64,000 nucleotides of DNA from positions 52,708 through 116,707 of IMG/VR virus record IMGVR_UViG_3300033571_024432. One strand, written 5' to 3'. Every line of letters starts with the position of its first letter. The stretch's first letter is position 1. The stretch is from a virus. A model generated the notes under the pieces. The model ran no database searches and was not told where the DNA came from. It worked only from the letters and a program-made list of their open reading frames with translations. A program made the translations under genes and the position numbers. Positions 15,069-59,479 of this stretch are shown here, piece after piece.

Positions 15069-15102
15069 CATACATGAATATTATAATAATTTAAATTATA
15101 AT
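15069..15102 (+). promoter_or_regulatory. Class A promoter variant (CATAC-ATGAAT-N17-TATAAT)
   Basis: One mismatch to class A core; 17-nt spacer; upstream of dnaE. Confidence 0.7.
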
Positions 15103-15148
15103 TTTTTATAATATCTTTATTACAACTCTAAGTAGGAGATAATTTTTA

Positions 15149-18100
15149 ATGTTTTCTAATTTTCAAACACCTAAACAATTTGTAGGACTTCATGCACATT
15201 CACATTTTTCTGTTTATGATGGTTTAGGTTATCCATCTGATCATATTGATTTTGTATTACAAAATGGTATGAATGCGTGGGCTTTAACAGATCATGGTAA
15301 TGCTAATGGTTTAGCACATGCACGCAGTCATACTGCTAAGTTGCAAAAGAAAGGAATTGATTATAGACAACTTTATGGTGTTGAATGTTATTTTGTTCCT
15401 TCTTTAAAAGATTGGGCGTCTGATTATGCAAATCATAAACAAACAATTAAAGATGCTAGAACTGCTGCTGAAGCTGAAAAAATTGCAAAATCTAAGGTTG
15501 ATATTGATGCAGATGATGATGTTGATGCTGGCGGATTAGTAATTGAAGATGAAAATGAATCAAAATCTTTAAATGTAATGGATGATGAATGGAAAAGACG
15601 TTATCATTTAGTTGTATTGGCACGTAATAGAAAAGGTTTATCGAATCTTTTCACAATGGTAAAAAAATCTTATAAAGAAGGTTTTTATAGATATCCTAGA
15701 ATTGATTTTGAAATGTTAAAAGAATTCGGTTCTGATCTTATTGTTTCAACTGCATGTTTAGGTGGTATTTATTCTAATCGTATTTTGAGAGGTGTTGCAC
15801 ATGGTCAATCACGTGATCAAATTCAGAATGAATTAAAAAATTTAACAGATCGTTTTCATCAATATATTGGTGAAGGATTTCATTTGGAATTACAATTTAA
15901 TAAATTAGAAAAACAACATGTTGTAAACGATTATTTAATCGAACATTCTAAATTAACTGGGATTCCATTAATTGCAACTTGCGATAGTCATTATCCAACT
16001 CCTGATAAATGGCAAGCACGTGAAATGTATAAAAAATTAGGTTGGTTAGGTAGCGAATTAAATACAGAATTACCTAAATTTGAAGATTTAAAATGTGAAT
16101 TATATCCTAAAAATGCTGATCAAATGTGGCAAGAATTTAAAACAGCATGGGAAGAATTAGATTTTTATAAAGGTAATGAAGAAATTGTTAAAAATGCAAT
16201 TGAAAGAACATATGATATTGCATGGGAAATGTGTGAAGATACATGGATTGATACAAAAGTAAAATTACCTGTAACTGATTTACCTAATAAAACAACAATG
16301 CAACAATTAACAGAATTAGTTAAAGAAGCTTTAATTAATGAAGGTCTTGCAGATAATCAAATTTATATTGAAAGAGCAAAAGAAGAATTATCTGATATCA
16401 AATACTTGGGGCATGAGGCTTATTTCTTAACAATGTATAAAATTTTTAAGGAAGCAGAAAAACATACATTTTTAGGACCGGGTCGTGGCTCAGGTGCAGG
16501 ATCTTTAGTTAATTATTTATTAGGAATCACTCAACTTGATCCTATTCCTTACAATCTTCTTTGGAATCGATTTTTAGGTCGACATCGTGTAAATTGGCCT
16601 GATATTGATACTGATGCTGGTAATCGTGATGAATTGATTAAAGCAGCACAAAAATTGTTTGGCGAAGAAGCTGTAATCCCTGTCAGCAATTTTAATACTC
16701 TTAAATTAAAATCATTAGTAAAGGATATTTCAAAGTTTTATAATGTTCCATTTGAAGAAGTTAATGCAGTAACAGGTCCATTACAAGATGAAGTAATGTA
16801 TCATGCGATGGATGAATCTATGGAAAAATCTGTGTTTGTTCTAAAACATGAAGATTGTATGGAATATAGCACGCGTTATAAAGAATTTATGGAAAAATAT
16901 CCAAAAGTAGAAGAACATATCAGAACATTATTTACTCAAAATAAATCTATTGGTAGACATGCAGGTGGCGTTATTGTAGCTGACCCTAAAGAGTTAGAAC
17001 AAACAATGCCAATGGTTGGTGTACGTGGTGAATTACAGACGCCATGGGCTGAAGGTCTTAACTTTCGAAATTTAGAAGATAATGGTTTTTTAAAATTTGA
17101 CTTTTTAGGTTTAACATTATTACGTGATGTTGAAAACTGTATTAACAGAATCTTAAAAAGAGAGAATAAAAGAAAAGCAACATTTGAAGAAATTAAAAAG
17201 TTTTTTGATGAAAAATTAAATTGTCGTTATGTTAAACAAGATGATTTAATTGTATGGAAACATGTTTATGAAATGGGACATTTTACAGGTATTTTTCAAT
17301 TTGCACAAACAGGCGCACGTAATTTTGCAATGGAGGCTAAACCACAAAATATTGAAGATTTAGCAGCTGTTACAGCAATTTATCGCCCAGGCCCTTTAAA
17401 GGCAAATGTGCATAAAAAATATGTAAAAGCTAAAAATGATGCAATGATTAAAAAACCAAAATATGCGCATCCTGTAATCGAAGAAGTTTTAGGACCTACA
17501 TATGGATTTATTGCATTTCAAGAACAATTTATGTTATTAGCACAAAAATTAGCAGGATTTAGTCCTGCAGAAGGTGATAAGTTACGTAAAACGCTTGTTA
17601 AGAAATCTGTTGAAAAATTAGATGCAATTTATAAAGAAAGGCAAGATGCTCGTGAAAAATTTATTAAAGGTGCAAAAGAAGTAAGTAATGTTCAAGAAAG
17701 TGTAGCAATTGGTTTATGGGAAGAAATTGATTTTTTTGCGCAATATGGCTTCAATAAATCACATGCTGTTGCTTATGCAATTGATTCATATTACGCTGCA
17801 TGGTTACATACACATTATGAAACAGATTGGTTATCTACAATTTTAGAAACAGAAAAAACAGATCCTGCACGTATGGCAAAAGCTATTTCAGAAGTTAAAT
17901 CTTATGGATATAAATTTAGTCAAATAGATGTAAATTATTCTGGTGATGAATGGTATTATTCAAATGATTTAAAGGCTTTTGTTCCTCCTTTATCATCATT
18001 AAAAGGTACAGGTGATAAAGCTGTTGAAGAAATTATGAAATATAGACCATATAATAATTTAGAAGAATTATTATATAATGAAAATGGTGAATGGAAACAT

Positions 18101-18730
18101 TCAAAAATGAATAAAGCTTCATTTGGTTCATTATGTAAAATGGAAGCATTTGGTTCATTAGAAGAAATGAAGAATGGGCATATTGCAAATCATAGACAAT
18201 TATACGATTTAATCATTGGAAATTATGACACTTTGAAAAAAGGAAAATATGGAATAACAGATGCAGCACGAAAAAAGATTGAAAAAAGAGGTGAACAACC
18301 ACAATTAATTATTGATGTTTTATTATCAGATATATTACAGGATCACTCAGATTGGTCACGTACGCAAAAGATTAGTAATCAATTCGAACTTAGTTCTAAT
18401 TCATCAGATGAGCTCCTGTATCCATCTGAGTTAATTGATAAGTTAAAAAAGCAAGAAATACCTAGCGCATTAACATTACCTGAAGGTAAGTTTGTTGCTT
18501 GGTTCTGTATTATGGATGGATTTGAAATTAAAAAAACAAAAAATGATAAAAATTTTATAAAAGCTGCAGTGTCAGATAATGAAGGAAATATTAGTAAAAT
18601 TAAAATATGGGGTGACATAGATACAAATGATTTTGCATATACAGTTTGGATAGCTGAAGTGAATATGCAAGCAGATTGGGGATTATCAACTAATTCTTTT
18701 AAAATGAAAAGGGTTACTATTTTTGATTAA
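15149..18730 (+). CDS. dnaE: DNA polymerase III alpha subunit (family C)
   Basis: PHP LHAHSHFSVYDG/TDHG/CDSH; GRGSGAGSL; PDIDTD; KFDFLGL; FNKSHAVAY. Confidence 0.97.
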   Translation: MFSNFQTPKQFVGLHAHSHFSVYDGLGYPSDHIDFVLQNGMNAWALTDHGNANGLAHARSHTAKLQKKGIDYRQLYGVECYFVPSLKDWASDYANHKQTIKDARTAAEAEKIAKSKVDIDADDDVDAGGLVIEDENESKSLNVMDDEWKRRYHLVVLARNRKGLSNLFTMVKKSYKEGFYRYPRIDFEMLKEFGSDLIVSTACLGGIYSNRILRGVAHGQSRDQIQNELKNLTDRFHQYIGEGFHLELQFNKLEKQHVVNDYLIEHSKLTGIPLIATCDSHYPTPDKWQAREMYKKLGWLGSELNTELPKFEDLKCELYPKNADQMWQEFKTAWEELDFYKGNEEIVKNAIERTYDIAWEMCEDTWIDTKVKLPVTDLPNKTTMQQLTELVKEALINEGLADNQIYIERAKEELSDIKYLGHEAYFLTMYKIFKEAEKHTFLGPGRGSGAGSLVNYLLGITQLDPIPYNLLWNRFLGRHRVNWPDIDTDAGNRDELIKAAQKLFGEEAVIPVSNFNTLKLKSLVKDISKFYNVPFEEVNAVTGPLQDEVMYHAMDESMEKSVFVLKHEDCMEYSTRYKEFMEKYPKVEEHIRTLFTQNKSIGRHAGGVIVADPKELEQTMPMVGVRGELQTPWAEGLNFRNLEDNGFLKFDFLGLTLLRDVENCINRILKRENKRKATFEEIKKFFDEKLNCRYVKQDDLIVWKHVYEMGHFTGIFQFAQTGARNFAMEAKPQNIEDLAAVTAIYRPGPLKANVHKKYVKAKNDAMIKKPKYAHPVIEEVLGPTYGFIAFQEQFMLLAQKLAGFSPAEGDKLRKTLVKKSVEKLDAIYKERQDAREKFIKGAKEVSNVQESVAIGLWEEIDFFAQYGFNKSHAVAYAIDSYYAAWLHTHYETDWLSTILETEKTDPARMAKAISEVKSYGYKFSQIDVNYSGDEWYYSNDLKAFVPPLSSLKGTGDKAVEEIMKYRPYNNLEELLYNENGEWKHSKMNKASFGSLCKMEAFGSLEEMKNGHIANHRQLYDLIIGNYDTLKKGKYGITDAARKKIEKRGEQPQLIIDVLLSDILQDHSDWSRTQKISNQFELSSNSSDELLYPSELIDKLKKQEIPSALTLPEGKFVAWFCIMDGFEIKKTKNDKNFIKAAVSDNEGNISKIKIWGDIDTNDFAYTVWIAEVNMQADWGLSTNSFKMKRVTIFD

Positions 18731-18778
18731 TATTTATAATAAAACATAATTATTAATTTATAAAGAAATGGAAAATAT

Positions 18779-21505
18779 ATGTCACTAAATATATTAAAAA
18801 ATTATATTAAAATGATATCTGAGGGTAGCGCATCTACAGATTTAAGTCCTAATAAATTAAATGCAGGATATATGTCTAAAATTTTTGGAAAAAACAGAAG
18901 CAAATCTAATATCGATCAATATAATTTTAAATTACTTGCTGAAATTAATGAAAAATTAGAAAATTTTGATTATGATGAAATGCATAATAATTATAATATT
19001 GACAAAGAAGATATAAATTATAAAAAAAATTTAGCAATATATTATGCTATTTTAGGTAAATTACTAAATAATAGTTTATTAAAAAATATTTTTATAAAAA
19101 AAAATTTTACAAATGATCAATATATATACATTCCTGAAAACGCTATTTATACAACTGCTGATTATACAAATATTTCCAAAGGCGAAATAATATTAAAAAA
19201 AATAGATGAAGAAGATGAAAATTATGATGAAGAAAATTTAATAATTAATGAACTTAATAAACTTTTAAATATTTTAATGAGTGTTTACGATTTTTCTGTA
19301 CATGATACAGAAAATATAAAGTTTGATATCGATGAAAAATATTTTAATATATCAGAATTTGTGTCTGCCAAACCGAATGCAAATCAAACTAAAAAACAAA
19401 TATATGAACAACAAACAGGCGCAGATTATAACGCTCAAGTTAATTTTGCACAATTTTTATTAAATATATCAGGATCTGATATATTTATTTCTTTTGTTGA
19501 TCCATATGAAAAAAATAAAAATGGCACTTTTAAAGTACCTCTTTTAGGTATAAATCCAAATGCGACATTTGGGACTCCACATGGTATATATGCATATCCT
19601 TTTGATAAACATAATGCTTTAAGTTATATAGCTACTGGTACAGCAACTCATGCAAAATTCGCTAGAAAAAGAGAATATTTTCATTTAATTAGAGTTGATT
19701 TAAATCATCCGAATGTATTAAATATCGATGAATCAGGTAACTCAAAAATTGGTAGTAGAAAGTATGATAAAAATGATTATCAAAAAGATTTTAATGAACT
19801 TGTTAGAATGGCAAATATTTTATTTAATTTTCCTTTATCACGTAATTTTTCAGGAAATATTTTAGATTTAGAAAATAATATTACAGATTTAAAATATTCT
19901 CATACAAAAACTAGTATTTCACATATGTACACAGGCGTTACAAATAATTTAAGATATTTATTTAAGAAAGTAGCAACAGAATTAAATATTGATGCTCAAT
20001 TAACTGATAAGAAAATTAATGAAATAATAAATGATATTGCTAATTCTTGCGGTTTAACAGACTATGTTATGAAAAACTATGTTAATAAAATAATTGGTAA
20101 TAATATTGATAAAAATAATTTTGATAAAAATGCAGAGGAGCAATTTTATGATTTTGTTGAAGAATTTAAAAATATAACAGTAGAAGAGTTGCCTTCAAAA
20201 AGTAGTATTTATAGAAATTTTGTAAAAAATTATCCTCAATTTAATAATTTAATGAAAAAACATTATGATAATTATATGCAAGAAAATTTGCCTGAAAGAT
20301 ATTCAGAATTAGTTCCTGATAGTACAAATAGTATAAATATTAAAGATTTTATGACAAATAATGATGTTTTAAATGCAAAATTTCAATATAAAAAGCATGA
20401 TCCTCTAGGAAATATATCAACTAATTCAAATGCTGAATTGGCTGATAGGATACTTAGTAATATAGTTATTATTAAAGATGAATTAAATAAAATAAAAGAT
20501 TTTGGCGTCCGTATTTGGAAAGCAGCATTTTTTATATCAAGGATTTTTTCTTATAATCAAAAAAATCAAAACTTTAATATTACACGTCTAATGCATGATG
20601 CAAAAAGTAATAGTTTTATTAGTTCTCATGAAGGAAGATCTGAATTTTTTTCATTATTGTTAAATTCAATTGGCATTAAATGTGTGATTGATCAAGGTAG
20701 TGGTACTGTTCATGGAAATGAACCATCTCAAATGCATATTGCAACATTTGGAGAGGATAATTCTTTTTATGGATATATTGGCACATTTGATAACATTTTT
20801 GAATATGGAGATCAAGGTGAAGCCATAGAAGAGTTAAGAGAAAAAAAGCGTAGAGAACTTATTATTAGCGCATTAGGGGGAGAAAATATAGAAAATTTTA
20901 CTGGAACTCAACCTGCTTTTTATCTAAGAAACAAATCTCCTAAAGAATTTAAAGCAGAGAATGAAAAAAGTGCAAGAAAATTGACAGATGCATATTTAGA
21001 ATATGTCTTGAGATACAATAAACCTAAAGTTGATTATGGCCCATTGGGACCTCCAGGAAATAGATATATACCAAAAAATCCAAAGATTGAAAAGAAAGAT
21101 AAAACACAAGCACTTTCGACAGAAAACCCTTTAATATATAATCAACTAAAAGCAACAAATATTTTATCAGATATATATGAAAAAATATATGCATTAAATG
21201 ACGACATAAAAAATGAAAATTGGTATCGTGATATTGTTGAAAAAATTAATCAGAATTATTTCGATGATACTAAATATAAAGATTATTATCTACTTCAAGA
21301 TGAATATGGAAATATGCCACATGGTTATACAAACGCAATTGGTAAAAAGCCAGAAAAAGATGAAATTAAGCATTTTAAAGATGGTCGTAATATGAGGAAT
21401 ATGCCTATTGGTAAATTTCACTGGAGAAATCCTACTGTAAATGAAAATTTAAATAAAGAAATATTTAATGCTTTAAAGTATAAAAAATTAAAGTTATTAT
21501 ATTAA
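18779..21505 (+). CDS. ART-like family paralogue 3 (large inserts)
   Basis: NPNATFGTPHGIYAYPFD, YFHLIRVDLNHPNV, IGIKCVIDQGSGTVHGNEPSQMHI; leader LKNYIKMISE. Confidence 0.6.
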   Translation: MSLNILKNYIKMISEGSASTDLSPNKLNAGYMSKIFGKNRSKSNIDQYNFKLLAEINEKLENFDYDEMHNNYNIDKEDINYKKNLAIYYAILGKLLNNSLLKNIFIKKNFTNDQYIYIPENAIYTTADYTNISKGEIILKKIDEEDENYDEENLIINELNKLLNILMSVYDFSVHDTENIKFDIDEKYFNISEFVSAKPNANQTKKQIYEQQTGADYNAQVNFAQFLLNISGSDIFISFVDPYEKNKNGTFKVPLLGINPNATFGTPHGIYAYPFDKHNALSYIATGTATHAKFARKREYFHLIRVDLNHPNVLNIDESGNSKIGSRKYDKNDYQKDFNELVRMANILFNFPLSRNFSGNILDLENNITDLKYSHTKTSISHMYTGVTNNLRYLFKKVATELNIDAQLTDKKINEIINDIANSCGLTDYVMKNYVNKIIGNNIDKNNFDKNAEEQFYDFVEEFKNITVEELPSKSSIYRNFVKNYPQFNNLMKKHYDNYMQENLPERYSELVPDSTNSINIKDFMTNNDVLNAKFQYKKHDPLGNISTNSNAELADRILSNIVIIKDELNKIKDFGVRIWKAAFFISRIFSYNQKNQNFNITRLMHDAKSNSFISSHEGRSEFFSLLLNSIGIKCVIDQGSGTVHGNEPSQMHIATFGEDNSFYGYIGTFDNIFEYGDQGEAIEELREKKRRELIISALGGENIENFTGTQPAFYLRNKSPKEFKAENEKSARKLTDAYLEYVLRYNKPKVDYGPLGPPGNRYIPKNPKIEKKDKTQALSTENPLIYNQLKATNILSDIYEKIYALNDDIKNENWYRDIVEKINQNYFDDTKYKDYYLLQDEYGNMPHGYTNAIGKKPEKDEIKHFKDGRNMRNMPIGKFHWRNPTVNENLNKEIFNALKYKKLKLLY

Positions 21506-22764
21506 TAAAAATTTAATATATTTTCTAAAGTGCTTTTCGAAATAAATATACCATATTTTTTCCATTTTTCGATATTATCTTCTATATAATCTAAAATATT
21601 TAAATCTACATTATATTTTGAAGTGTATTCTCTTGAAAGATAAGCATTTAATAGTTCATTAATAATATTTCTTATATAATCTATTTGTGTTTCATCCCTT
21701 AATCCTGTATTATGATTAATAGGTGCTAGAGTATTAAAATTTGTTAAAGTTTTAAACTGATTTAAATCAATTAATGAAAAATATTTCATTTTATCAATAG
21801 GTTGTATGTTTAACATTATTTTTTCCAAATGATTTAAAATATTTAAACTTATTCCTGTTTTTTTATTAATTTCTATTTTTAAATTATCATTAAACTCAAA
21901 TTCTGTTTCTCCATATTTTGAGTTTAAGTAAAATGTATTATTTGAAGTAATTACGCTGGTTATTTTATTGCAATATATTTTTTCGCCAGAATTAGTTATT
22001 ATTTTTTTTAAACCTAAAGAAATTTTATTATGTCCTGATATATCGTTTTCTGGTAAAAAATAAAATATATTATCGCCGCTGAAAAAATATGTATTAAATA
22101 AATTTGAATCTAAACGAGCTGTACACCATTTTGTATCATCTTTATTATTTAAAACAATATCCTCAGCTAACCAATTTGTTCTAGCCCAAAAAATTGAAGA
22201 CGCCATATTTAATGGACAAACTACTAAAAAGCCATCAATAATATTATTATTAAATGGATAGAATGTTTTATTTTTTTTTAATAAATTTTTTTCTTCAATG
22301 ATTCTGTTTAATCCTGATATTTCTGATTTTTCTTGTATTTTTTGATAAACAAATAATAATTTTTCATATGTATTTGTTGAATATTCATAGTTATTTTTAT
22401 TATAGTTTAACATAAAATCATAAATATAATCTTTAAAAATAATACCATTTGTTGTTTTTTTAGATGTAACATCTTTTTGTTGATATAAAAACAATAATGA
22501 TGTGCATATATTTTCTATATAATATTGTATATTTGATTCATTAAATTTAGAAATATCATTAATACATTCATATAAAACATCAATAAAAAAACGTCCTGGT
22601 GAATTTTGATTATATAAAGAATATTTTATATTAATATTTTCAAATGTTTCATTAATTAAATTGAAAATAACATTTTTTTCTTTTAAATTAAATAATTTAT
22701 ATTTTGTCTCAAATAAAATATTTTCTCTTATTATTTTTTTGAAATCTGCTAATTTAATTATCAA
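21502..22764 (-). CDS. Putative PcfJ-like domain protein with head-targeting-like leader
   Basis: VVCPLNMASSIFW...TKWCTARLDSNLFNTY; leader FKKIIRENILFE. Confidence 0.5.
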   Translation of the reverse strand: MIIKLADFKKIIRENILFETKYKLFNLKEKNVIFNLINETFENINIKYSLYNQNSPGRFFIDVLYECINDISKFNESNIQYYIENICTSLLFLYQQKDVTSKKTTNGIIFKDYIYDFMLNYNKNNYEYSTNTYEKLLFVYQKIQEKSEISGLNRIIEEKNLLKKNKTFYPFNNNIIDGFLVVCPLNMASSIFWARTNWLAEDIVLNNKDDTKWCTARLDSNLFNTYFFSGDNIFYFLPENDISGHNKISLGLKKIITNSGEKIYCNKITSVITSNNTFYLNSKYGETEFEFNDNLKIEINKKTGISLNILNHLEKIMLNIQPIDKMKYFSLIDLNQFKTLTNFNTLAPINHNTGLRDETQIDYIRNIINELLNAYLSREYTSKYNVDLNILDYIEDNIEKWKKYGIFISKSTLENILNFY

Positions 22765-22824
22765 TTTAATATATCCTTATATTTTATTCATAATTATATT
22801 TAAAAAAGTATAAGAGTTAGATAA

Positions 22825-23757
22825 ATGAAAGAAAAAACAATAAGATTATATATAAAAAATTTATTAGAATCTAAATTTTTAGCAATGGCTTCAGATGACT
22901 TAAATGCAGATAATATTAGTCGTTTTTTTAATCAAAGATTAAATTTTATAGATATAAAAAATGTAAATGATTTAAAAGATTATTTAATAGATATTTCTGG
23001 ACCTGATGTTTTTATTTCATTTACAAACCCATGGAATCAAAATATTCCTACTTTTTCAATAAATCCTATAGCAAAGTTTGGAACTCCACACGGAATATAT
23101 TTTTATCCCTTTGATATAAAAAATGCTATTAAATTTATAAATGAAGGTAAACCTACAAATGCTAATTTTGCAATCAGAAATGATTATTTTCATTTGTTAA
23201 AAGTAGATTTAAATCATCCAAGTGTATTGATATTAAATCAAGATGAAACAGTAAATAGAAAAGATTTATCAATTATTGAATTTAAAATATGTTTAAATGA
23301 AATAATAAGAATATGTAAAGAATACTCAAATATTGAAATAAATAAAAATGAATTATTTTTTGAATTAAAAAAATATAATAAACAATATAACAATTTTTAT
23401 ATAAAATTATATCAAATATGTGGTATAATATCAAAAAAAGTATCATTAAAAAATAATTCTGAATTATTTGGTTTATTATTAAATAGTTTGAATATAAAGT
23501 GTGTAATTGATCGTGGTTTAGGTGTAATACATCATAATGAACCTAATCAAATGCATATTTTACAATATGATGATAATGATAGTTTTTATGAATATATTGG
23601 CACTTTTAAAAATTTAATTAAAGATTACGTTTATTTTGAAGACAGAACTATTGCACAACCTAAAAAAGATTTTCAAAATATAAACAATTTATTAAAACAA
23701 AAATCATTAAATATCGATGATGTTATGAATAATCCTAATTTTAAAATTAATAATTAA
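22825..23757 (+). CDS. ART-like family paralogue 4 (minimal core)
   Basis: GPDVFISFTNP, GTPHGIYFYPFD, NIKCVIDRGLGVIHHNEPNQMHI; leader IRLYIKNLLE. Confidence 0.6.
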   Translation: MKEKTIRLYIKNLLESKFLAMASDDLNADNISRFFNQRLNFIDIKNVNDLKDYLIDISGPDVFISFTNPWNQNIPTFSINPIAKFGTPHGIYFYPFDIKNAIKFINEGKPTNANFAIRNDYFHLLKVDLNHPSVLILNQDETVNRKDLSIIEFKICLNEIIRICKEYSNIEINKNELFFELKKYNKQYNNFYIKLYQICGIISKKVSLKNNSELFGLLLNSLNIKCVIDRGLGVIHHNEPNQMHILQYDDNDSFYEYIGTFKNLIKDYVYFEDRTIAQPKKDFQNINNLLKQKSLNIDDVMNNPNFKINN

Positions 23758-23759
23758 TA

Positions 23760-23796
23760 TTACATACGTGAATATTTAAAATTTTTTATTTAAAAT
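23760..23796 (+). promoter_or_regulatory. Class A promoter (TTACATAC-GTGAAT-N17-TAAAAT)
   Basis: 15-nt identity with 59443-59457; 17-nt spacer. Confidence 0.8.
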
Positions 23797-23837
23797 TTTT
23801 TTATAACTACAAAATTTAATAATATTAAAAGAGTAAA

Positions 23838-24770
23838 ATGATGAATAGCATTTCAAAACTAAATAAACCTATTGAGAATAGTTATTGGGTAATACCTAAT
23901 ACATTTTTAGCTGCAGAATATCCTAGAACAATTGATGAAGATGAATCACATGAAAAAATAAAAAACATTTTAAAATCAGGTATTACATGTTTTGTTGATT
24001 TAACTGATGATAAGCATTTAAAAGAATATGAATATATTATCGATAAATATAAAAAAGAATATCCAGGTGTTAAAAGAATCAATTTTAAAATAAAAGATGG
24101 ATATACACCTAGTGTTGATTTTATGGATCAAATTTTAAATAAAATTGACGAATTATTATGTAATGGCGAAAAGATATATCTTCATTGTTGGGGCGGAATT
24201 GGAAGAACAGGTACTGTTGTTGATTGTTGGTTACATAAAAATGTTAATGGAAGAATTAATAATAATGTAGGTAAAAATAATTTTACAGGAAAAGTTGAAA
24301 GTGATCTAAATTTAGTTAAATTATGGTGTACTAATTTTAAAGCACTTAGAAAAAGAGAACCTAAAAAACCAACGAATCATAGACAAAGAATATTTGTAGG
24401 TAATTGGATTGATGAATATATCAAAAATAATAAATTAAATCAAACACATTTAAATGTAAATGAAGTTTTAAATAGAAATATAAATTTAGATTTAAATAGT
24501 TTAAATGAAAATTTATATAAAAATCTGATAAAAATTATTGATATTATGAATGTAAAAATAGAAGATAAAGAGTATTTTTGTCAAAATGTATTATTAAATT
24601 TACTTAAAAAATACAATAAAGTAAATATTGAAACGCAAAATTTTTCTTTAATTTTTCAAAATAAAAATAATGATTTTATAACTTTAAAATTTATAGATTT
24701 AAAAGAAAACAAAAAAATAAATACTTTTTTGTTTTGCAGTAATGGATTTAGACAAATAGAAGGTTTATAA
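23838..24770 (+). CDS. Protein tyrosine/dual-specificity phosphatase family protein
   Basis: CX5R loop HCWGGIGRTG; SYWVIP N-terminus; general-acid loop IKDG. Confidence 0.9.
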   Translation: MMNSISKLNKPIENSYWVIPNTFLAAEYPRTIDEDESHEKIKNILKSGITCFVDLTDDKHLKEYEYIIDKYKKEYPGVKRINFKIKDGYTPSVDFMDQILNKIDELLCNGEKIYLHCWGGIGRTGTVVDCWLHKNVNGRINNNVGKNNFTGKVESDLNLVKLWCTNFKALRKREPKKPTNHRQRIFVGNWIDEYIKNNKLNQTHLNVNEVLNRNINLDLNSLNENLYKNLIKIIDIMNVKIEDKEYFCQNVLLNLLKKYNKVNIETQNFSLIFQNKNNDFITLKFIDLKENKKINTFLFCSNGFRQIEGL

Positions 24771-24851
24771 TTATTTAAATTTTAAATAAAAAATTTTTAT
24801 AAAATAAAAAAAAATAAATAATAATAAAAATTTATAAAATAAAAGGTGAGT

Positions 24852-25415
24852 ATGATTGACCCTAAATTTATTGTATATACAGGTCCTATGTATGGATCAA
24901 AAACTACTAAATTGTTAGCGATGATTGATAGATTTGCTAGACAAAAGAAAAATGTGATTGCTTTTAAACCTAAAATAGATAATAGATATGCAGATTCATA
25001 TATACAATCTCATAATGGTGGTAAATTTACAGCATATCAAGTATCAAACGGACATGAACTATTAAATGAATTAAAAAAGCAAGAATTAAATAATAAAATT
25101 AATTATGATGTGATTGCAATAGATGAAGCATTTATGATTGATGATTGTTCAGATGCATTAATTGGATTATTTTGTAATGGTTATACAATTATTGTATCGT
25201 CTATTCAATTAGATGCACATTTTAAACCATTTACTGAAATTATGAAAATTATGCCTTATGCAACACAAATTGAAATTTGTCCCGCTGTATGTCCTATAAC
25301 AGGAAATGATGCTTACTATACAATGGCCAAATTTGATTATAAAGAAGTTACTGTTGGTGGAGACATTTTATATGAACCAAGAAGTTGGTCTGCATTCCCA
25401 ATAATCAAAGGATAA
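24852..25415 (+). CDS. tdk: Thymidine kinase (TK1 type)
   Basis: GPMYGSKTT, FKPKIDNRY, IAIDEAF, GG..YEP. Confidence 0.9.
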   Translation: MIDPKFIVYTGPMYGSKTTKLLAMIDRFARQKKNVIAFKPKIDNRYADSYIQSHNGGKFTAYQVSNGHELLNELKKQELNNKINYDVIAIDEAFMIDDCSDALIGLFCNGYTIIVSSIQLDAHFKPFTEIMKIMPYATQIEICPAVCPITGNDAYYTMAKFDYKEVTVGGDILYEPRSWSAFPIIKG

Positions 25416-25419
25416 AATC

Positions 25420-25824
25420 ATGACAAGACCTACTTGGAAAGAAATATGGATGAATGTAACAGAATTAATTGCACAACGTTCTCATCATCCTACATTTAAG
25501 GTTGGTGCAATTATTACATCAAATGATAATACACAAATTTTATCAATAGGTTATAATGGTAATGAAGCAGGAGGTAATAATATACCTGATAGCTGTGAGC
25601 CTGGTATGAGTGGATTATTACATGCAGAAATAAATTGTTTAATTAAATTAGATTATAATAATTATAAAGATAAAACAATGTGGCTAACGTTAAGTCCTTG
25701 TGCACAATGTGCAAAAGCAATTGTAAATGCTGGTATTAAAAGTGTTATATATAAAAATCAATATCGTGATATTGAAGGAATTAATATATTAGTAAATTCA
25801 GGAGTTAATGTCGAAAAATATTAA
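25420..25824 (+). CDS. dCMP deaminase family protein
   Basis: VGAII, IGYNG, HAE and SPCxxC zinc motifs. Confidence 0.9.
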   Translation: MTRPTWKEIWMNVTELIAQRSHHPTFKVGAIITSNDNTQILSIGYNGNEAGGNNIPDSCEPGMSGLLHAEINCLIKLDYNNYKDKTMWLTLSPCAQCAKAIVNAGIKSVIYKNQYRDIEGINILVNSGVNVEKY

Positions 25825-25841
25825 TAATTAATATATAAGTA

Positions 25842-25870
25842 TTGACAATATTTTATAATTAAAATATAAA
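25842..25870 (+). promoter_or_regulatory. Near-canonical sigma70 promoter (TTGACA-N17-TATAAA)
   Basis: Exact -35 hexamer, 17-nt spacer; upstream of 25887. Confidence 0.5.
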
Positions 25871-25886
25871 AAGGAATTATGTTATT

Positions 25887-26390
25887 ATGTTTCAATTGAA
25901 TGAAAATAGTATGAAACGTATTATGCGTGAGGAATATTTTAAAAGATTAAAACATTTTTTACAAGAAGAAATGTCTATAATGTATAAAAATGGTTCAAAT
26001 GAAATAGATGTATTGTCAGATGCTTCAAAATTAAAAGTAAGAAATGATAAAAGTGGTTTAGAATATACTGTTTTAAAATTTGATAAAGCTAATAAAAAGG
26101 TTGTATTATTATGTCCTGAATTTTCTAGATTTGATTCTAGTTATAAACCTAAATCAACAAAAAAATTAACTGAGGTTGATTTTGATAATGATGGTGTTGA
26201 TGATTTAAGTATTAAATTAAACAAAATAGATAGTTTATTAGACGATGAAGATGAAAAAGATTCTAGAAAAACAACGAATGATAAAATAAAATTAATGGAT
26301 TTTAATAAAGATGATGATTCAAGCATATCTAAAAATAAAGATTATATTATCGTTGATTTAGATGAATTTATTAAAGAATATAGTTTATAA
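25887..26390 (+). CDS. Acidic hypothetical protein with head-targeting-like leader
   Basis: MFQLNENSMKRIMREE...FLQEE; DxDxDG motif DFDNDG. Confidence 0.7.
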   Translation: MFQLNENSMKRIMREEYFKRLKHFLQEEMSIMYKNGSNEIDVLSDASKLKVRNDKSGLEYTVLKFDKANKKVVLLCPEFSRFDSSYKPKSTKKLTEVDFDNDGVDDLSIKLNKIDSLLDDEDEKDSRKTTNDKIKLMDFNKDDDSSISKNKDYIIVDLDEFIKEYSL

Positions 26391-26401
26391 AAGGATATAA
26401 A

Positions 26402-28170: not shown

Positions 28171-28209
28171 AAAATAAACATTATAAAAAAAAGAATATAA
28201 TTTTATATT

Positions 28210-28960: not shown

Positions 28961-29026
28961 TAAAAAAATTATTTATAATTTAAATCGATAATTATTGTTT
29001 ATATAATAAAGCATCGAGGTAAATAT

Positions 29027-29521: not shown

Positions 29522-29522
29522 A

Positions 29523-44548: not shown

Positions 44549-44580
44549 TTTTATTTCTTTTCTAAAGAAAAGAAATAAAA
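44549..44580. terminator. Long perfect hairpin after the sigma-HTH-PDF operon
   Basis: TTTTATTTCTTTTCT-AA-AGAAAAGAAATAAAA. Confidence 0.55.
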
Positions 44581-44664
44581 AAATTGAAACAAGAAAAATT
44601 GAAAATATTTCAAATATAGATAAAAATAAAAAAGAAGAGAATAAATAATAATAAAAGAATTATT

Positions 44665-45489: not shown

Positions 45490-45546
45490 ATACATTAAAT
45501 ATTCATATATATAATATTATAATATCATAATAAGGTTATAATAAAA

Positions 45547-46850: not shown

Positions 46851-47029
46851 TTCATTTATTAATAACTTTTAATTTTTTATTTTTTCAAAATCAAAACTTA
46901 CAACAAAAATATGAAGATGTAATTGATGTAAATATTATAAGATTTAAACCAAAAAAATCTGAAGATGAATTGGAATTATTACCTCCTATTCAATCAGAAA
47001 GACCTGAAGCTTTATCAATGAGTTATTGA
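46847..47029 (+). CDS. Small protein with hydrophobic N-terminus
   Basis: 60 aa, ATGA overlap. Confidence 0.5.
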   Translation: MIHLLITFNFLFFQNQNLQQKYEDVIDVNIIRFKPKKSEDELELLPPIQSERPEALSMSY

Positions 47030-48887: not shown

Positions 48888-48927
48888 TTTAATATTATGA
48901 TATATATAAAAAAAGGAAAATATTAAT

Positions 48928-49146
48928 ATGAACAAATTAAAGTTGGTAGAATATATAAAAGAATTATTAAATTTATTGGTAAAAGAAGAAAATGATAATG
49001 GAAAAATTGATTTGGATAAACTTCAAAAAAAGTATCCTGATTTTGGCATTTCATATGATGATGATGATGAACAGCAAATTGAAAAAGAAAGAGATAAAAA
49101 ATATTTTGAAGAAAAAATGAAAAGAAAAATCAGAAAAGACTTTTAA
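48928..49146 (+). CDS. Small hypothetical protein with leader
   Basis: LVEYIKELLNLLVKEE; AAGGA RBS. Confidence 0.65.
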   Translation: MNKLKLVEYIKELLNLLVKEENDNGKIDLDKLQKKYPDFGISYDDDDEQQIEKERDKKYFEEKMKRKIRKDF

Positions 49147-49147
49147 A

Positions 49148-49348
49148 ATGAAATTAAATGAAAACAAATTGAAAAAATTATTAAAAGAATATTTATTTGA
49201 AATATATTCAGGATCATATTCAGATGAATCTTATAAAGATGGACATATTGATGATATGATGTTAGATAAAGAAGGATGGATAACTGATCCGGATGATCGT
49301 AAAAAAATTAAAAAATGGTACTTAGATATGAAATTATCTCATAAATGA
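49148..49348 (+). CDS. Small hypothetical protein with leader
   Basis: MKLNENKLKKLLKEYLFE. Confidence 0.7.
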   Translation: MKLNENKLKKLLKEYLFEIYSGSYSDESYKDGHIDDMMLDKEGWITDPDDRKKIKKWYLDMKLSHK

Positions 49349-49382
49349 ATATATATATATTAAAAATAAATAGGTGCTTTTC

Positions 49383-50135
49383 ATGTTATTAAATGAAATA
49401 AAATTAAAAAAAATTATTAAAAATTTATTATCTGAACATTTTCTTTTAATTGAACAAGCAATCGATGATAAAATTAAAAAAGAATGGATAACTTTTCTAA
49501 AATTAAAAAACAAAATAAATTCTGATTATTTTAATAGCGCAAGCGCTGATAGTAATTCTCAAGGCAATATGTGCAATTCACGCTTTGGCGCTTATGCTAT
49601 AGCAAATCAAGCAGATAAAGGTAAAGCTTTTTTTAACGATGTATTTAATGATATAAATGTTGATGAATTAGATCTTGATATTGTTAATAAAAATATAGAT
49701 GAATTATATTCTTTTTTATTTCATCATTATATTAATCCAAATAAGGCAAATGTGAAAGAATTTATTGATATGTTTAAAAATATTAAAATACATGTTAAAG
49801 AAAGTAATAAAATGAATTTAAATTTATTCATTTCTAATGTTATTAAAATATTAGAAGCATGTAAAGGTATAAATATTTGGAATGATGAACTTATAGAAGA
49901 AGATATAGGTATTATTTCAACAATTGATGATATTTCTGAAATTACTTCAACAGATCAACTAACAGGTAGATTAAATAAAAATTATCCTGGTGAAATTATA
50001 TTTTCTAATTTAAATAGCAGAAATACACATTTAGCAAAACTTTTATCTAAAAAATTAAATGACAATGTAATTAAAGAAATAGTTTATAGATTAAAAAGTA
50101 CATTAAATTATAGAAAAAAAAATAAAAAAATGTAA
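49383..50135 (+). CDS. Hypothetical protein with leader
   Basis: MLLNEIKLKKIIKNLLSE; ATG 49383 after AGGTG. Confidence 0.7.
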   Translation: MLLNEIKLKKIIKNLLSEHFLLIEQAIDDKIKKEWITFLKLKNKINSDYFNSASADSNSQGNMCNSRFGAYAIANQADKGKAFFNDVFNDINVDELDLDIVNKNIDELYSFLFHHYINPNKANVKEFIDMFKNIKIHVKESNKMNLNLFISNVIKILEACKGINIWNDELIEEDIGIISTIDDISEITSTDQLTGRLNKNYPGEIIFSNLNSRNTHLAKLLSKKLNDNVIKEIVYRLKSTLNYRKKNKKM

Positions 50136-50240
50136 TAATAATAAAAATTTATTTAGTATCTTAAAATAATTATTATGAAACTTTTACATAAATAAATATA
50201 AAATATAAAATATAAAAAATTAAATCAAATTTAAAAAATT

Positions 50241-50280
50241 TTGTAATCTACGTGAATATTATATATAATTAGAATATAAT
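50241..50280 (+). promoter_or_regulatory. Interleaved class B (50241-50269) and class A (50249-50280) promoters
   Basis: TTGTAA-N17-TATAAT and TAC-GTGAAT-N17-TATAAT offset by 11 bp. Confidence 0.75.
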
Positions 50281-50331
50281 TTAATTATAAATATTTATTT
50301 TATTTTCGCTATAATATATCTAGGAGTATAT

Positions 50332-51246
50332 ATGCCAGTTTCTTTAGGTTATGCATGTATTAATACATTATTACCATCAGCAAATTCTACTATGCGTAAA
50401 GCAACATTTGATCAAAAAGGTATTGAATATGCAGGTGAAATTGCTTTAAAAAATTTTAATGCTATTATTCCAATAATTGAATGGAATAACAAAAATAATA
50501 TTAGATTATATAGAATGTCATCAGATATGATGCCATGGGCATCTGAATACAATATGGAAGATTTACCGCAGTTTGATGAAATAAAAAAAGTATTATATAA
50601 AATTGGTGAATTATCTAAATTGTATAATCAAAGATTAACATTTCATCCTGGACAATTTGATTGTTTAGCTTCTGATAATGAAAATGTTATTAAAAATACT
50701 ATCATAGATCTAGAAATACATGGAAAAATAATGGATTTAATTGGTGTTTCTAAAACACATTATAATAAAATAAATGTTCATTTAGGCTCCTCATGTGGCG
50801 GAAATCATAAATTAGCAATGGACAATTTTTGTAGAAATTTTGATAAGTTATCTGAATCTGTTAAATCTAGATTGACAATTGAAAATGATGATAAAAAAGG
50901 TATGTTTTCTGTAAATATGTTGTATGAAGGTGTTTATAAAAATATTAAAGTGCCTATTGTTTATGATCAACATCATTGGGAATGTGGACCTCAAGATCAA
51001 TCACAACAAGATGCATTTGAGACTGCATATTTGACATGGGATAAAATAAAACCTGTTTGTCATTTAAGTAATAGTAAAAAAGAATATGAAGATAATAGCG
51101 TTGTAATAACAGCACATTCAGATTATATTTATAAACCATTTAATAATTACGATCTTGATGTTGATGTTGTTGTTGAGGCAAAAATGAAAGAACAAGCTGT
51201 TTTAAATTATTTAAAGAAATGGGATACAAATGGAAAAGAAAGATAA
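50332..51246 (+). CDS. uvsE: UV damage endonuclease
   Basis: LGYACIN, YRMSSD, RLTFHPGQF, RLTIENDD, YDQHH, AHSDYI, VEAKMKEQA. Confidence 0.95.
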   Translation: MPVSLGYACINTLLPSANSTMRKATFDQKGIEYAGEIALKNFNAIIPIIEWNNKNNIRLYRMSSDMMPWASEYNMEDLPQFDEIKKVLYKIGELSKLYNQRLTFHPGQFDCLASDNENVIKNTIIDLEIHGKIMDLIGVSKTHYNKINVHLGSSCGGNHKLAMDNFCRNFDKLSESVKSRLTIENDDKKGMFSVNMLYEGVYKNIKVPIVYDQHHWECGPQDQSQQDAFETAYLTWDKIKPVCHLSNSKKEYEDNSVVITAHSDYIYKPFNNYDLDVDVVVEAKMKEQAVLNYLKKWDTNGKER

Positions 51247-57883: not shown

Positions 57884-58414
57884 TTGACTTTACAAGCTAT
57901 TGCAATTTGTGCATTTTTTTATTTATCTGATGAACATAAATTAGATATTAAACCAGAATCTGTAGATTTAATATGTAAAAACGCAGAATTAATAGTTGAA
58001 TATAGTATAAAAAATAATATATATCCTGAATTAATGTTAAGTTTAATGTGGAGTGAATCTCGATTTCAAACAGATGTTATATCAAATCATGGAGCATGTG
58101 GTATGATGCAAATAATTCCTAAATGGTCTGATAATAAAACGTGTAATCAATTAAAAATACCTTTAGAAACAATTATAGAAGGATCTAGACAATTAAATTT
58201 TTGGATTTCAGAATATGGTAAAGGATCTATTGAAAAAGGATTATGTGGATATGCAGCAGGATATAAATGTAAAGAATCAGGAAAGGCAAAAAAATATGCT
58301 AAAATGATTAATAATAAATCTAAAAAGCTTAGAAATAAAATTAATAAATTAATAATTTTATTGTCTGAAAAAAAAGAATTTCAAAAGTATTTAGTTAATA
58401 AATACAAATTATAA
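57884..58414 (+). CDS. Lytic transglycosylase (SLT family)
   Basis: LMWSESRF...VISNHGACGMMQI...GLCGYAAG. Confidence 0.88.
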   Translation: MTLQAIAICAFFYLSDEHKLDIKPESVDLICKNAELIVEYSIKNNIYPELMLSLMWSESRFQTDVISNHGACGMMQIIPKWSDNKTCNQLKIPLETIIEGSRQLNFWISEYGKGSIEKGLCGYAAGYKCKESGKAKKYAKMINNKSKKLRNKINKLIILLSEKKEFQKYLVNKYKL

Positions 58415-58430
58415 AATATAATTAAAACTT

Positions 58431-58467
58431 TTACAAATGTGAATATTAATAATTTCTAATATATAAT
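58431..58467 (+). promoter_or_regulatory. Class A promoter (TTACAAAT-GTGAAT-N17-TATAAT)
   Basis: 13/15 match to core; exact spacer. Confidence 0.75.
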
Positions 58468-58516
58468 TCTTATTAAAAAAACTAAATCTATATCTAATCT
58501 AATACGTGGACAAAAA

Positions 58517-59002
58517 ATGAAAGCAAACAAAAAAGAAAAATGTTTTACTAAACAAATTGAAATTGTGCATGATTTTATTAAACAGAATGGTTATATTGTA
58601 AAATGTAACGAAGATAACGAAGATGAATTTTATCCTTATTTAAAAACAATTTTTATAAAGAAAAGACTTGATAAAGAATTAGAATTGTTTTATTTATTAC
58701 ATGAAACAGGACACTTAATAACTCATATTAATATACACAAATGGCGTTTTGAAAATTTGCCTTATACAATAGAAAAAGGCGTTGATGAAAAGAAAGAAAT
58801 GAAAAAAGCTTTATGGCAAGCAGCATCATTATCTGAAGAACATGAAGCTTGGAAAAATGGTAAAATATTATCTATGCAATTAGGCTTATCATTTGATAAT
58901 AAAAGATATGAAAATGAATGGGCAGATTGCATTAAAGATTATATAAAATTTGCGTATGATAATTTATTTTTACCAGATAATGGCCAGAGCAACCAAGATT
59001 AA
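58517..59002 (+). CDS. HExxH metallopeptidase-like (ImmA/IrrE-like) protein
   Basis: LLHETGHL with downstream EEHEAWKNG. Confidence 0.65.
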   Translation: MKANKKEKCFTKQIEIVHDFIKQNGYIVKCNEDNEDEFYPYLKTIFIKKRLDKELELFYLLHETGHLITHINIHKWRFENLPYTIEKGVDEKKEMKKALWQAASLSEEHEAWKNGKILSMQLGLSFDNKRYENEWADCIKDYIKFAYDNLFLPDNGQSNQD

Positions 59003-59073
59003 AAAATAATAAGTACATATAGATTTATTTGTTTATTATTTTAAAATAAAACGTGATAAAAGAAGGAGTTAAA

Positions 59074-59412
59074 ATGTCAATATCTTTATCAAAGAATTTA
59101 AATAAAAAAGAACTTAATAAATTAAAACAAAATCTGAGAATTGCAGTTAAAGATATAACTCATGAAAAAAAGTTGGAATGGAATTTAAAAGAAGGAGAAT
59201 TGGTTACAACTAAAATAGACACAATTTGTTACTATAAAGATGAATCAGGATATATACATTCCATACAATTAGAAAAAGATTCAATATTGATCGTCTCAAA
59301 ATATCCTAATCCTGGTTCAAATGATTATTATTATAACAATAATCAAAATATTTTTTGTTTATATGATGGCAAAATTATATTTATGAATCCACTTAATTTA
59401 TTAAAAATATAG
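59074..59412 (+). CDS. Hypothetical protein
   Basis: ATG 59074 after AAGGAG. Confidence 0.6.
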   Translation: MSISLSKNLNKKELNKLKQNLRIAVKDITHEKKLEWNLKEGELVTTKIDTICYYKDESGYIHSIQLEKDSILIVSKYPNPGSNDYYYNNNQNIFCLYDGKIIFMNPLNLLKI

Positions 59413-59442
59413 ATTTCATTATCTTTATATGATTTATATTTT

Positions 59443-59479
59443 TTACATACGTGAATAATAAAAAATTTTAAAGTATAAT
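59443..59479 (+). promoter_or_regulatory. Class A promoter (TTACATAC-GTGAAT-N17-TATAAT)
   Basis: 15-nt identity with 23760-23774; exact spacer. Confidence 0.8.

Follow-up and report, generated by a model that had tools for sequence, protein, structure and literature searches.

Here, we describe what is, on sequence grounds, a discrete two-element promoter class of a phage's own type, consisting of seven strand-specific sites with the consensus [A/G]TGAAT-N17-TA(T/A)AAT, together with the phage-encoded sigma factor and the neighbouring helix-turn-helix (HTH) gene that are candidates for reading it. The sites, which we refer to as class A, lie in a 64,000-nucleotide stretch of DNA (the window) that forms the right-hand 64 kb, positions 52,708 to 116,707, of a single 116,707-bp IMG/VR record, IMGVR_UViG_3300033571_024432. 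They precede genes for DnaE, for nucleotide salvage, for a 5'-3' exonuclease, for the sigma factor itself and for a UV-damage endonuclease, as well as two units of other kinds, one encoding an M78-like protein and one a MoxR-type ATPase with a VWA-like partner.

The record has a GC content of 25%, carries 119 of its 127 called open reading frames (ORFs) on the plus strand and has intergenic DNA that is 86% AT, in which TATAAT-like hexamers are common. As CheckV puts its completeness at ~44%, the phage, an uncultured one from freshwater with very AT-rich DNA, is probably giant, roughly 250 kb or more, and the record is a fragment of its genome. Searching the phage collection at the DNA level gave zero matches to the record, and by sequence none of the cultured phages is close to it, the best sigma match among them being the full-length rpoD of Microcystis phage MaAM05 (40% identity) and the best DnaE matches reaching 28% identity at most. 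Relatives were found among uncultured phages, namely 41 sigma relatives in IMG/VR (37-47% identity, on contigs of up to 290 kb and 25-54% GC) and nearer ones in the metagenome collection (56-69% identity, mostly freshwater contigs). Their loci and records are denoted by L- and G-numbers. G006, which is the nearest relative as regards the dnaE region, is collinear with the record over 23.6-88.7 kb at protein identities of 55-94%, and three relatives of 200-270 kb (G001, which is the record of L039, G002 and G004) were scanned whole.

The class A motif

The seven sites all lie on the gene strand and are as follows:

15068 to 15102, plus strand: class A copy 1, ahead of dnaE; TCATAC-ATGAAT-N17-TATAAT; leave-one-out score 18.7 bits
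23762 to 23796, plus strand: class A copy 2, ahead of the phosphatase, thymidine kinase and dCMP deaminase genes; ACATAC-GTGAAT-N17-TAAAAT
39654 to 39688, plus strand: class A copy 3, within ORF 39339-39767, 88 nt 5' of the exonuclease gene; ACACAC-GTGAAT-N17-TAAAAT
42692 to 42726, plus strand: class A copy 4, in the C-terminal codons of the 61-residue ORF 42551-42736, 63 nt 5' of the sigma gene; TCATGC-GTGAAT-N17-TATAAT
50246 to 50280, plus strand: class A copy 5, ahead of uvdE, the downstream half of a tandem; ATCTAC-GTGAAT-N17-TATAAT
58433 to 58467, plus strand: class A copy 6, ahead of the gene for a 161-residue M78-like protein; ACAAAT-GTGAAT-N17-TATAAT
59445 to 59479, plus strand: class A copy 7, ahead of the MoxR-type ATPase and DUF2201/VWA genes; ACATAC-GTGAAT-N17-TATAAT

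The core pattern GTGAAT-N17-TAWAAT occurs in six exact copies, all on the plus strand, against 0.17 expected from dinucleotide shuffles, none of 100 of which reached six. When the motif is extended with ACAYRC and up to two mismatches are allowed, there are seven copies against 0.07 expected, the dnaE copy with its ATGAAT hexamer thereby being included. The hexamers start at 15074 (ATGAAT), 23768, 39660, 42698, 50252, 58439 and 59451, and the remainder of the 116,707-bp record holds no additional plus-strand copy. A position matrix built from the seven sites scores each of them at 36-52 bits (15-42 when left out of the matrix), with the next best position in the 116.7 kb scoring 11.8, and its informative positions are C-A-y-r-C-G-T-G-A-A-T-A and TAwAAT. 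The spacing is equally strict: among 38 plus-strand occurrences of GTGAAT, a TAWAAT box follows at spacer 17 in six and at spacer 11 in one, with none at the remaining spacers of 10-25.

The -10 box is TATAAT in five copies and TAAAAT in two, and the distance from its end to the next start codon is 41-63 nt, or 88 nt at the exonuclease gene. Set against the bacterial -35 consensus TTGACA, the GTGAAT box matches at three of six positions and its mismatched positions are invariant across copies, while the spacer and the -10 are canonical. TTGACA-N16-18-TA.AAT has zero occurrences on the plus strand and GTGTAA-N16-18-TA.AAT, a form to which the (A)CGTGAAT box conforms at four of six positions, has zero in the record. 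We consider it highly probable, from their sequence and placement, that the seven sites are promoters. Among public runs, none is listed as containing RNA for window 39000-47000.

The first-pass annotation of this DNA, which had proposed a seven-copy non-canonical promoter class and named enrichment over a shuffled background as its test, is confirmed by these counts and by the isolation of the sites in the matrix scan. It had located the right sites, at positions 3-8 nt 5' of the actual hexamer starts, and its statements that every spacer is exactly 17 nt, that two copies share 15 identical nt (TTACATACGTGAATA) and that two copies lie inside upstream coding sequences (39660 in ORF 39339-39767 and 42698 in the 61-residue ORF 42551-42736) all hold.

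Two further features of the sites were considered and set aside. A second TATAAT-like box 4-6 nt past the -10 is found at background level (5 of 7 class A sites, 7 of 17 sites of the second promoter class described below and 28 of 83 other intergenic TAWAAT boxes), and the dyad symmetry of the 12-mer box is unconvincing, its half-sites agreeing by eye at three of six positions. A terminator scan of 12000-30000 gave four sites against 2.3 expected, none of them ahead of a class A site.

Genes served by the class A sites

The genes past the seven sites are listed here with two promoters of a second type, TTGTA(A/T/G)-N17-TATAAT, which we call class B and which stand close to the same units:

15149 to 18730, plus strand: dnaE, first gene past copy 1 (Pfam)
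23838 to 25824, plus strand: DSP-type phosphatase, thymidine kinase and dCMP deaminase, past copy 2 (Pfam)
39777 to 40589, plus strand: 5'-3' exonuclease, past copy 3 (Pfam)
40595 to 40623, plus strand: class B promoter, TTGTAA-N17-TATAAT, ahead of a 63-residue ORF, the chaperonin gene, the 61-residue ORF and the sigma gene
42790 to 43575, plus strand: sigma-70-type factor of 261 residues, with Pfam regions 1.2, 2, 3 and 4.1 only
43577 to 43867, plus strand: HTH protein of 96 residues, 1 nt past the sigma stop codon
43867 to 44529, plus strand: peptide deformylase, last gene of the sigma/HTH unit
50241 to 50269, plus strand: class B promoter of the uvdE tandem, TTGTAA-N17-TATAAT, 11 nt 5' of, and overlapping, the class A site at 50252
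50332 to 51246, plus strand: UvdE UV-damage endonuclease, past the tandem class B and class A promoters (Pfam)
58517 to 59002, plus strand: 161-residue M78/IrrE-like protein, past copy 6; a weak match (E-value 0.002) short of the Pfam cut-off
59538 to 61994, plus strand: MoxR-type AAA_5 ATPase and DUF2201 metallopeptidase/VWA-like protein, past copy 7 (Pfam)

Pfam agrees with the names that the first-pass annotation had given to these genes, the protein that it described by a HExxH motif being the weak M78-like match. Class A marks part of the replication and repair genes, plus genes of other kinds (M78-like and MoxR/VWA). The earlier view that it marks replication and repair genes thus stands for DnaE, nucleotide salvage, the exonuclease and UvdE and fails for the 41.7-52.7 kb block of the record, where the genes for a gp32-like single-stranded DNA-binding protein, RecA, a second exonuclease, DnaB, dUTPase and ribonucleotide reductase are without a class A copy, gp32 being served by a class B promoter. 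None of the seven first genes opens with the shared N-terminal leader of the putative virion genes, as had been claimed (N-termini were read by eye); despite these leader-free first genes, a leader-bearing ORF of 908 residues, at 18779, sits 48 nt 3' of dnaE.

Both ORFs that contain a class A site are found in relatives, ORF 39339-39767 having tblastn matches in 26 fetched loci and the 61-residue ORF 42551-42736 having a C-terminal peptide that is readable there. The sigma unit (40655-44529) is flanked by the gene of a chaperonin (Cpn60 family, 550 residues), which lies behind the conserved 63-residue ORF, and by that of peptide deformylase.

Positional counterparts in relatives

None of the 41 IMG/VR loci contains the exact pattern GTGAAT-N16-18-TAWAAT, and yet relatives do have positional counterparts for six of the seven sites of class A (those at the exonuclease, sigma, uvdE, dnaE, MoxR and M78-like genes), in which a GTG(T/C)AA, GTGAAA or GTGTAT box stands 16-18 bases before a TATAAT-like -10. 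With counterparts in the same place at six of seven sites, class A is the local form of the family's promoter and not a new invention. The phosphatase site has no comparable orthologue, the gene being missing from G006, where thymidine kinase has a TTGTAT promoter.

The site within the ORF ahead of the exonuclease gene is the most widely sampled, being present in 29 distinct loci (28 besides the target record) as GTG[TCA]A[ATC]-N17/18-TA..AT. Its box is read in frame 0 where the spacer is N17 (Val-Gln, Val-Lys or Val-Asn) and in frame 1 where it is N18 (Cys-Asn or Cys-Lys). The DNA word is thus kept while the encoded residues change, so that selection acts at the DNA level, as the first-pass annotation had suggested for the sites inside coding sequences. 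Likewise, the site upstream of the sigma gene occupies the last codons of the small conserved ORF, ~17 nt from a TATAAT-like box in relatives. Here, the box is CGTGTAAT in many marine relatives (codons Arg-Val-Ile), GTGTAAC in others, ACGTGTAAG in L043-L055 and CGTGAAT in L042 and the target (codons x-Val-Asn).

At uvdE, a tandem consisting of TTGTA(A/T)-N17-TA(T/A)AAT and, 11 nt on, CGTGAA(T/A)-N17-TAT(A/T)AT is found in the target, in L042 (TTGTAT and CGTGAAT) and in L055 (TTGTAA and CGTGAAA), with diverged spacers. The uvdE genes of L039, L081 and L020 have a lone GTGYAA promoter, and that of L037 has GTGCAA-N17-TAAATT. The dnaE orthologues of L125 and L127 have GTGTAA-N17/18-TATAAT at the equivalent place, the MoxR orthologues of L081, L129 and L130 have GTGYAA-N17/18 promoters and the M78-like orthologue of L059 has CGTGTAT-N16-TATAAT.

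In L056-L060, the region upstream of the sigma gene is without a CGTG box, as is the region upstream of MoxR in L059 (L059:2000-2098), and TCAGGAAAAAAT(T)AATAA stands before TATAAT instead. This element may be a further box variant, seen at two sites only.

A family-wide promoter code

Whole-record scans show that these counterparts belong to a code used across the family. GTGYAA-N17/18-TATAAT occurs 36 times in G001, 19 times in G002 and 13 times in G004, as opposed to one, zero and zero times for a reversed-pattern control, and in G002 and G004 every copy is on one strand. The TTG[AT][AC]A-N17/18-TATAAT pattern stays near control in the same three records (0-4 copies versus 0-2). In an unbiased tally over 611 kb of relatives, the commonest hexamers 17 nt 5' of TATAAT were GTGTAA (14) and GTGCAA (9), and TTGACA was outside the twelve commonest listed.

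Relatives whose GC content ranges from 25% to 55%, and which come from both marine and freshwater sources, retain the family box, a persistence that fits a phage-borne reader better than it fits the sigma factors of many hosts. The target fits the family promoter in register, -10, gene strand and the non-structural nature of the genes served, and its hexamer departs from GTG(T/C)AA; boxes that bridge GTGTAA and GTGAAT, namely GTGAAA and GTGTAAG, are found in close relatives. In G001, the 88.6-96.8 kb region holds a dense GTGTAAC(T/C)-N-TATAAT array, with one copy per 0.4-1.4 kb, and the boxes elsewhere in that record read GTGTAA(A/T)T, such that its boxes may form two sub-classes that differ at the base past the hexamer.

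Class B promoters

Class B outnumbers class A, with 17 plus-strand copies in the record, all with a perfect TATAAT and many of them intergenic; examples in the window are at 11105, 12510, 14010, 39280, 40595, 50241 and 62000. A further seven TTGTAA-type copies are on the minus strand, mostly antisense inside genes, which indicates that the class B background is higher than the shuffles suggest. Several class B sites have counterparts in relatives: the one ahead of ORF 39339 is TTGTAT, ATGTAT or GTGTAT there, the one ahead of the 63-residue ORF and chaperonin gene is TTGTAA, ATGTAA or GTGTAA in L042-L061, and the one inside a coding sequence before record gene 37186 is TTGTAA in G006 too.

The two classes vary in different ways. 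Within the freshwater clade, the variable position of class B is the first base, TGTA(A/T) being constant, whereas in class A (A)CGTG is constant and positions 4 and 6 vary. Class A sites and their orthologues tolerate TAAAAT, TATTAT and TAAGAT as the -10, whereas the class B sites (17 sites matched with TA.AAT) all have TATAAT, and the looser -10 of class A is compatible with a greater dependence of this class on the upstream box. The distant relative G005 has five copies of GTGYAA-N17-TAAATT, including those ahead of sigma and uvdE, and eleven of TTGTAAA-N17/18-TATAAT, eight of which are on the gene strand. Together, the differences between the classes, the split in G005 and the -10 tolerance favour two modes of recognition. 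That class A is also a temporal class separate from the TTGTAA promoters is a tentative proposal from these patterns, to which we give somewhat less than even credence.

Next to copy 6, a minus-strand TTGTAA-N17-TATAAT match (58408-58436) abuts the class A site, with no minus-strand gene following it. The TTGTAAAAGT of this match is the reverse complement of the ACTTTTACAA just 5' of the copy 6 box, and by eye T(T/A)ACA(T/A/C), which reads as an nTGTAA-like word when reversed, stands just 5' of the box in four of the seven copies.

A truncated sigma factor and its partner

The sigma factor encoded in the window lacks the part that would read a -35 element. Pfam regions r1_2, r2 and r3 are matched, the match to r4 is confined to profile positions 2-18 of 50, and the ORF ends 24 residues past LRLRFGL, so that region 4.2, the -35-reading part, is missing. 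The same holds for the relatives examined other than L040; in these truncated forms, sigma stops past REEKI(I/L)RLRFG(I/L) with a short tail. The truncated sigma gene is followed by an ORF of ~85-110 residues with an invariant '...MNH...R...K' helix and invariant M, G, N-H, R, K and F-Q residues. Sigma and the product of the small ORF are separate proteins and do not arise by a frameshift, as the small ORF always begins at a start codon of its own and is offset in frame by +1 in some cases and by +2 in others. L040, whose sigma is ~30% identical, has a normal full-length protein, and a pattern scan of its locus found no GTG-type promoter. Each record has a single sigma gene and a single HTH gene, which is true also of a complete 293-kb genome that has terminal repeats, and no second copy of either was found in the record or in five relatives, bar one sub-threshold r2 match in G002. 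In L042 (L042:10700-11120), the tail of the sigma factor has an acidic repeat, (DDDIVE)n, and an extra ORF of 69 residues lies between the sigma and HTH genes.

Region 2 of the sigma factor keeps FSTYACWWIKQA, which we take to be close to the -10-reading segment of primary sigma factors and to fit a TATAAT -10. The AlphaFold2 model of the 96-residue protein (predicted local distance difference test score, pLDDT, of 84) has four helices, the first two of which form a helix-loop-helix, and a sequence search of the PDB with this protein gave only unrelated weak matches. By eye, and with no confirmation from the tools used, its segment 'SYTEISKIM...MNHNNVRAIMIKSFAKI' presumably aligns with the region 4.2 helix-turn-helix of primary sigma factors. 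The small protein would then be the missing region 4.2. Across relatives, the helix series NHSTxRN to NHSNVRA to NHNNVRA parallels the drift of the box from GTGTAA to GTGAAA to GTGAAT, in what amounts to one or two evolutionary events.

How the class A sites may be read

We lean, by a modest degree of belief, towards the reading that the phage sigma factor and its HTH partner together recognise the class A sites. With the phage sigma (regions 1.2 to 4.1) bound to it, the RNA polymerase core would read TATAAT or TAAAAT through sigma region 2, and the small HTH protein would supply the missing region 4.2 function and read (A)CGTGAAT at the -35 position. Class A would in this way drive dnaE, the phosphatase-thymidine kinase-dCMP deaminase genes, the exonuclease gene, uvdE, the M78-like gene, the MoxR-VWA genes and the sigma-HTH-deformylase unit, the last of these being under its own class A promoter and hence subject to positive feedback. 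The first sigma molecules could come from read-through from the TTGTAA promoter at 40595, 3' of which no terminator was recognised, or from basal transcription, and the class A genes would switch on thereafter as a middle-type class. Class B would be a separate class, nearer the bacterial consensus and possibly read by the host sigma factor.

Several results weigh against this proposal, both in its identification of the reader and in its separation of the two classes. Pfam Sigma70_r4_2 matches two of 26 HTH family members, at an E-value of 0.02; hhalign of the HTH family against the full-length L040 sigma returned nothing, and Foldseek with the HTH model found no match. In VIA-align the best Z-score of the model was 5.0, with the region 4 domain of SigL at 4.0, level with small HTH domains such as those of LysR and LuxR, and no fused sigma-HTH protein was found in a weak search. 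L046 shares the target's helix, NHNNVRAIM, and yet has the boxes GTGACT and GTGTCT, such that there is no simple helix-to-box code and the covariation is kept as a lead only. Dense GTGTAAC arrays, for example in G001, look like early regions, which is hard to reconcile with a reader whose synthesis has to come first, and, with the sigma gene behind a class A promoter, its expression needs a start from outside. Finally, G006 has TTGTAT-N17-TATAAT at the dnaE site, where the target has class A, and 58.6 kb of this relative holds no GTGAA-N18-TAWAAT (a pattern that covers GTGAAT and GTGAAA at N17). The classes thus appear to be interchangeable and one reader might serve both, and the first-pass claim of a dedicated temporal class is, as it was stated, unsupported.

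Three of the alternatives need no phage sigma. Chance, or a by-product of coding in a very AT-rich genome, can draw on the abundance of TATAAT-like hexamers in intergenic DNA that is 86% AT and on the two copies within ORFs; it is rejected on the counts (6-7 seen against 0.07-0.17 expected), and the use of spacer 17 alone, the placement of all sites on the plus strand 41-88 nt ahead of a start codon and the orthologous sites with boxes in shifted codon frames leave it a negligible probability. It is very improbable, too, that a host sigma factor, primary or alternative, has this -35 preference and that the phage copies host promoters: the -10 is indeed the bacterial consensus, but GTGYAA is kept in phages of 25% to 55% GC from marine and fresh waters, these phages do not use TTGACA-type boxes beside TATAAT and the box co-occurs with the phage-encoded sigma/HTH pair. 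An activator deserves more weight, although we judge it unlikely. Here, host sigma-70 holoenzyme would read TATAAT and a phage activator bound at ACAYRCGTGAAT would replace the -35 contact in the manner of MotA/AsiA, the HTH protein or some other phage protein being this activator and not a piece of sigma. Such a model accommodates the consensus -10, a target box that at 12 nt is longer than the usual -35 hexamer, an HTH protein that is not demonstrable as sigma region 4 and a set of genes typical of middle transcription. It sits poorly with a box exactly 17 nt from the -10, in the canonical -35 register and with no spread, with an extension beyond ACGTG that is not retained in close relatives and with the lack of any MotA_activ domain found in the record (itself a fragment), and the constant coupling of the HTH gene to a sigma without its -35-reading part would be unexplained were that sigma idle. 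The exact register and the truncated sigma/HTH pair together make a phage sigma reader likelier than appropriation of the MotA/AsiA type.

A further alternative has one reader and one class, GTGAAT and TTGTAA being strong and weak, or drifting, forms of a single nTGnAn box without a separate temporal regulon. Both classes do share T2, G3, A5, the 17-nt spacer and TATAAT, and both serve replication genes; the dnaE site is ATGAAT in the target and TTGTAT in G006, the first base at the 63-residue ORF site is T, A or G among relatives, and there is a single sigma and a single HTH gene per genome. However, the target has no intermediates (zero GTGTAA-N16-18-TA.AAT), a gap of >24 bits in the matrix scan separates the seven sites from all else, three lineages retain both types 11 nt apart at uvdE, with diverged spacers, and G005 pairs two boxes with two different -10 boxes. 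On balance, we do not expect a single class to be correct, and we place it low among plausible outcomes. The proposal that the phage sigma and its HTH partner read class A can also be taken a step further, to a promoter switch in which two private -35 codes, CGTGAA(T/A) and nTGTA(A/T), are served by one truncated sigma and one detachable HTH reader. Class B would be read without the HTH piece (or by the host sigma), class A only with it, and the uvdE tandem, with its offset of 11 nt, would be the meeting place of both states; we hold this extension to be doubtful.

Comparison with known systems

In phage T4, middle promoters combine a MotA box, (a/t)(a/t)(a/t)TGCTTtA, with a sigma-70 -10 element and are activated together with AsiA, there being no phage sigma for middle genes; the MotA box has its centre close to -30 and is separated from the -10 by 11-13 bp. 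The class A sites resemble these promoters in that a phage-specific element replaces the host -35, in the host-like -10 (TAnnnT) and in the replication and nucleotide genes served, and differ from them in having the box (A)CGTGAAT at exactly 17 bp and a phage sigma. The MotA-box analogy drawn in the first-pass annotation is therefore a functional one only, as the box at 17 bp occupies the -35 position and the ~44%-complete record has no match to PF09114 (MotA_activ) at an E-value of 1 or below.

Among published systems, the closest is that of the jumbo phages vB_PcaM_CBB and GAP32, for which 'divergent RpoD-like' promoters with a -35 of TGAAACG and a classic -10 were predicted in ~18 copies, mainly ahead of DNA-synthesis genes; these phages have their own sigma-70-type factor and also RpoD-like promoters, and the CBB sigma is reported to combine regions 2, 3 and 4 in one protein (PMC5259590). 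Common to both cases are the classic -10, the non-canonical -35, the phage's own sigma and a second promoter class. The box is a different one, region 4.2 is here missing with a separate HTH gene present, and both cases are predictions.

Phage sigma-dependent middle and late promoters are known from SPO1 gp28 and gp33-gp34 and from phiEco32 gp36 (PMC13401047, PMC12276001). In these, as is proposed here, a phage sigma retargets the host core polymerase to a private promoter and sets a temporal class; they are, however, single sigmas of other subfamilies (gp33-gp34 being a pair) and both of their promoter elements differ, whereas only the -35 is private here. Split sigma factors have been described in Bacillus subtilis SigO-RsoA, Tn916 Sig7-Sig8, T4 gp55-gp33 and SPO1 gp33-gp34 (bioRxiv 10.64898/2026.10.01.756105). 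The likeness is in the division of -10 and -35 (or flap-binding) functions between two polypeptides encoded side by side; the difference is that those proteins are group-4-like or highly diverged, whereas the sigma described here is group-1/2-like and has regions 1.2-4.1, with only 4.2 missing. A literature search found no primary-like sigma missing only region 4.2 with a coupled HTH gene.

Other elements in the record and its relatives

A second repeated element, of ~45 nt, was observed in four copies, two in the window (35870-35910 and 58480-58516) and two elsewhere in the record (record positions 1620-1667 and 40360-40405). It consists of an A-run, a G-free C/A-rich tract (for example, CAACAACACCATCTAACCAATCTA) and then ATACGTGGACAAA, with an ATG directly 3' in three of the four copies, one of which opens a GIY-YIG-like ORF and one the M78-like gene. 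TTACGTGGACAG is present at the M78-like orthologue in L059 and at a G006 site, and the element has an ACGTG core in common with the class A boxes. Its role might be that of a leader, a translation signal, an operator or the end of a mobile element.

RecA is encoded in two ORFs (record 42698-45007), the second of which has a Vsr/DUF559-type endonuclease domain, and the large subunit of ribonucleotide reductase is likewise in two ORFs (record 47973-50973), the second opening with an intein splicing motif. DnaE matches span 4.7-5.0 kb in L126-L128 and 3.6 kb here, which suggests inteins in these relatives. At the end of the record (window 63880-64000), tandem GCAGGTACATCAGCAGGTGTTGAA repeats lie within an ORF starting ATGGAACAAGAT, and the record is probably cut within this repeat.

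Significance

Promoter classes read by a phage sigma are a known timing device, and the known phage sigmas are single proteins or very diverged pairs. The large family of uncultured aquatic giant phages described here retains the bacterial -10 and has changed the -35 code alone, the apparent means being that the -35-reading part of sigma has been cut off and an HTH protein is used instead. This private code is not fixed, having moved to CGTGAAT in one freshwater lineage, and the features new to the present record are that the box has shifted to GTGAAT, that GTGTAA is absent, that two stable classes coexist and that the uvdE tandem is conserved. At a practical level, the promoters can be used as markers of transcription units in unannotated phage genomes of this family. 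If the reader has been assigned correctly, the seven sites, the sigma factor and the 96-residue protein would make up a compact system of -35 recognition and a source of orthogonal promoter and sigma parts, and, should the switch view be true, the series of boxes and helices could be used to study how a -35 code and its reader evolve together.

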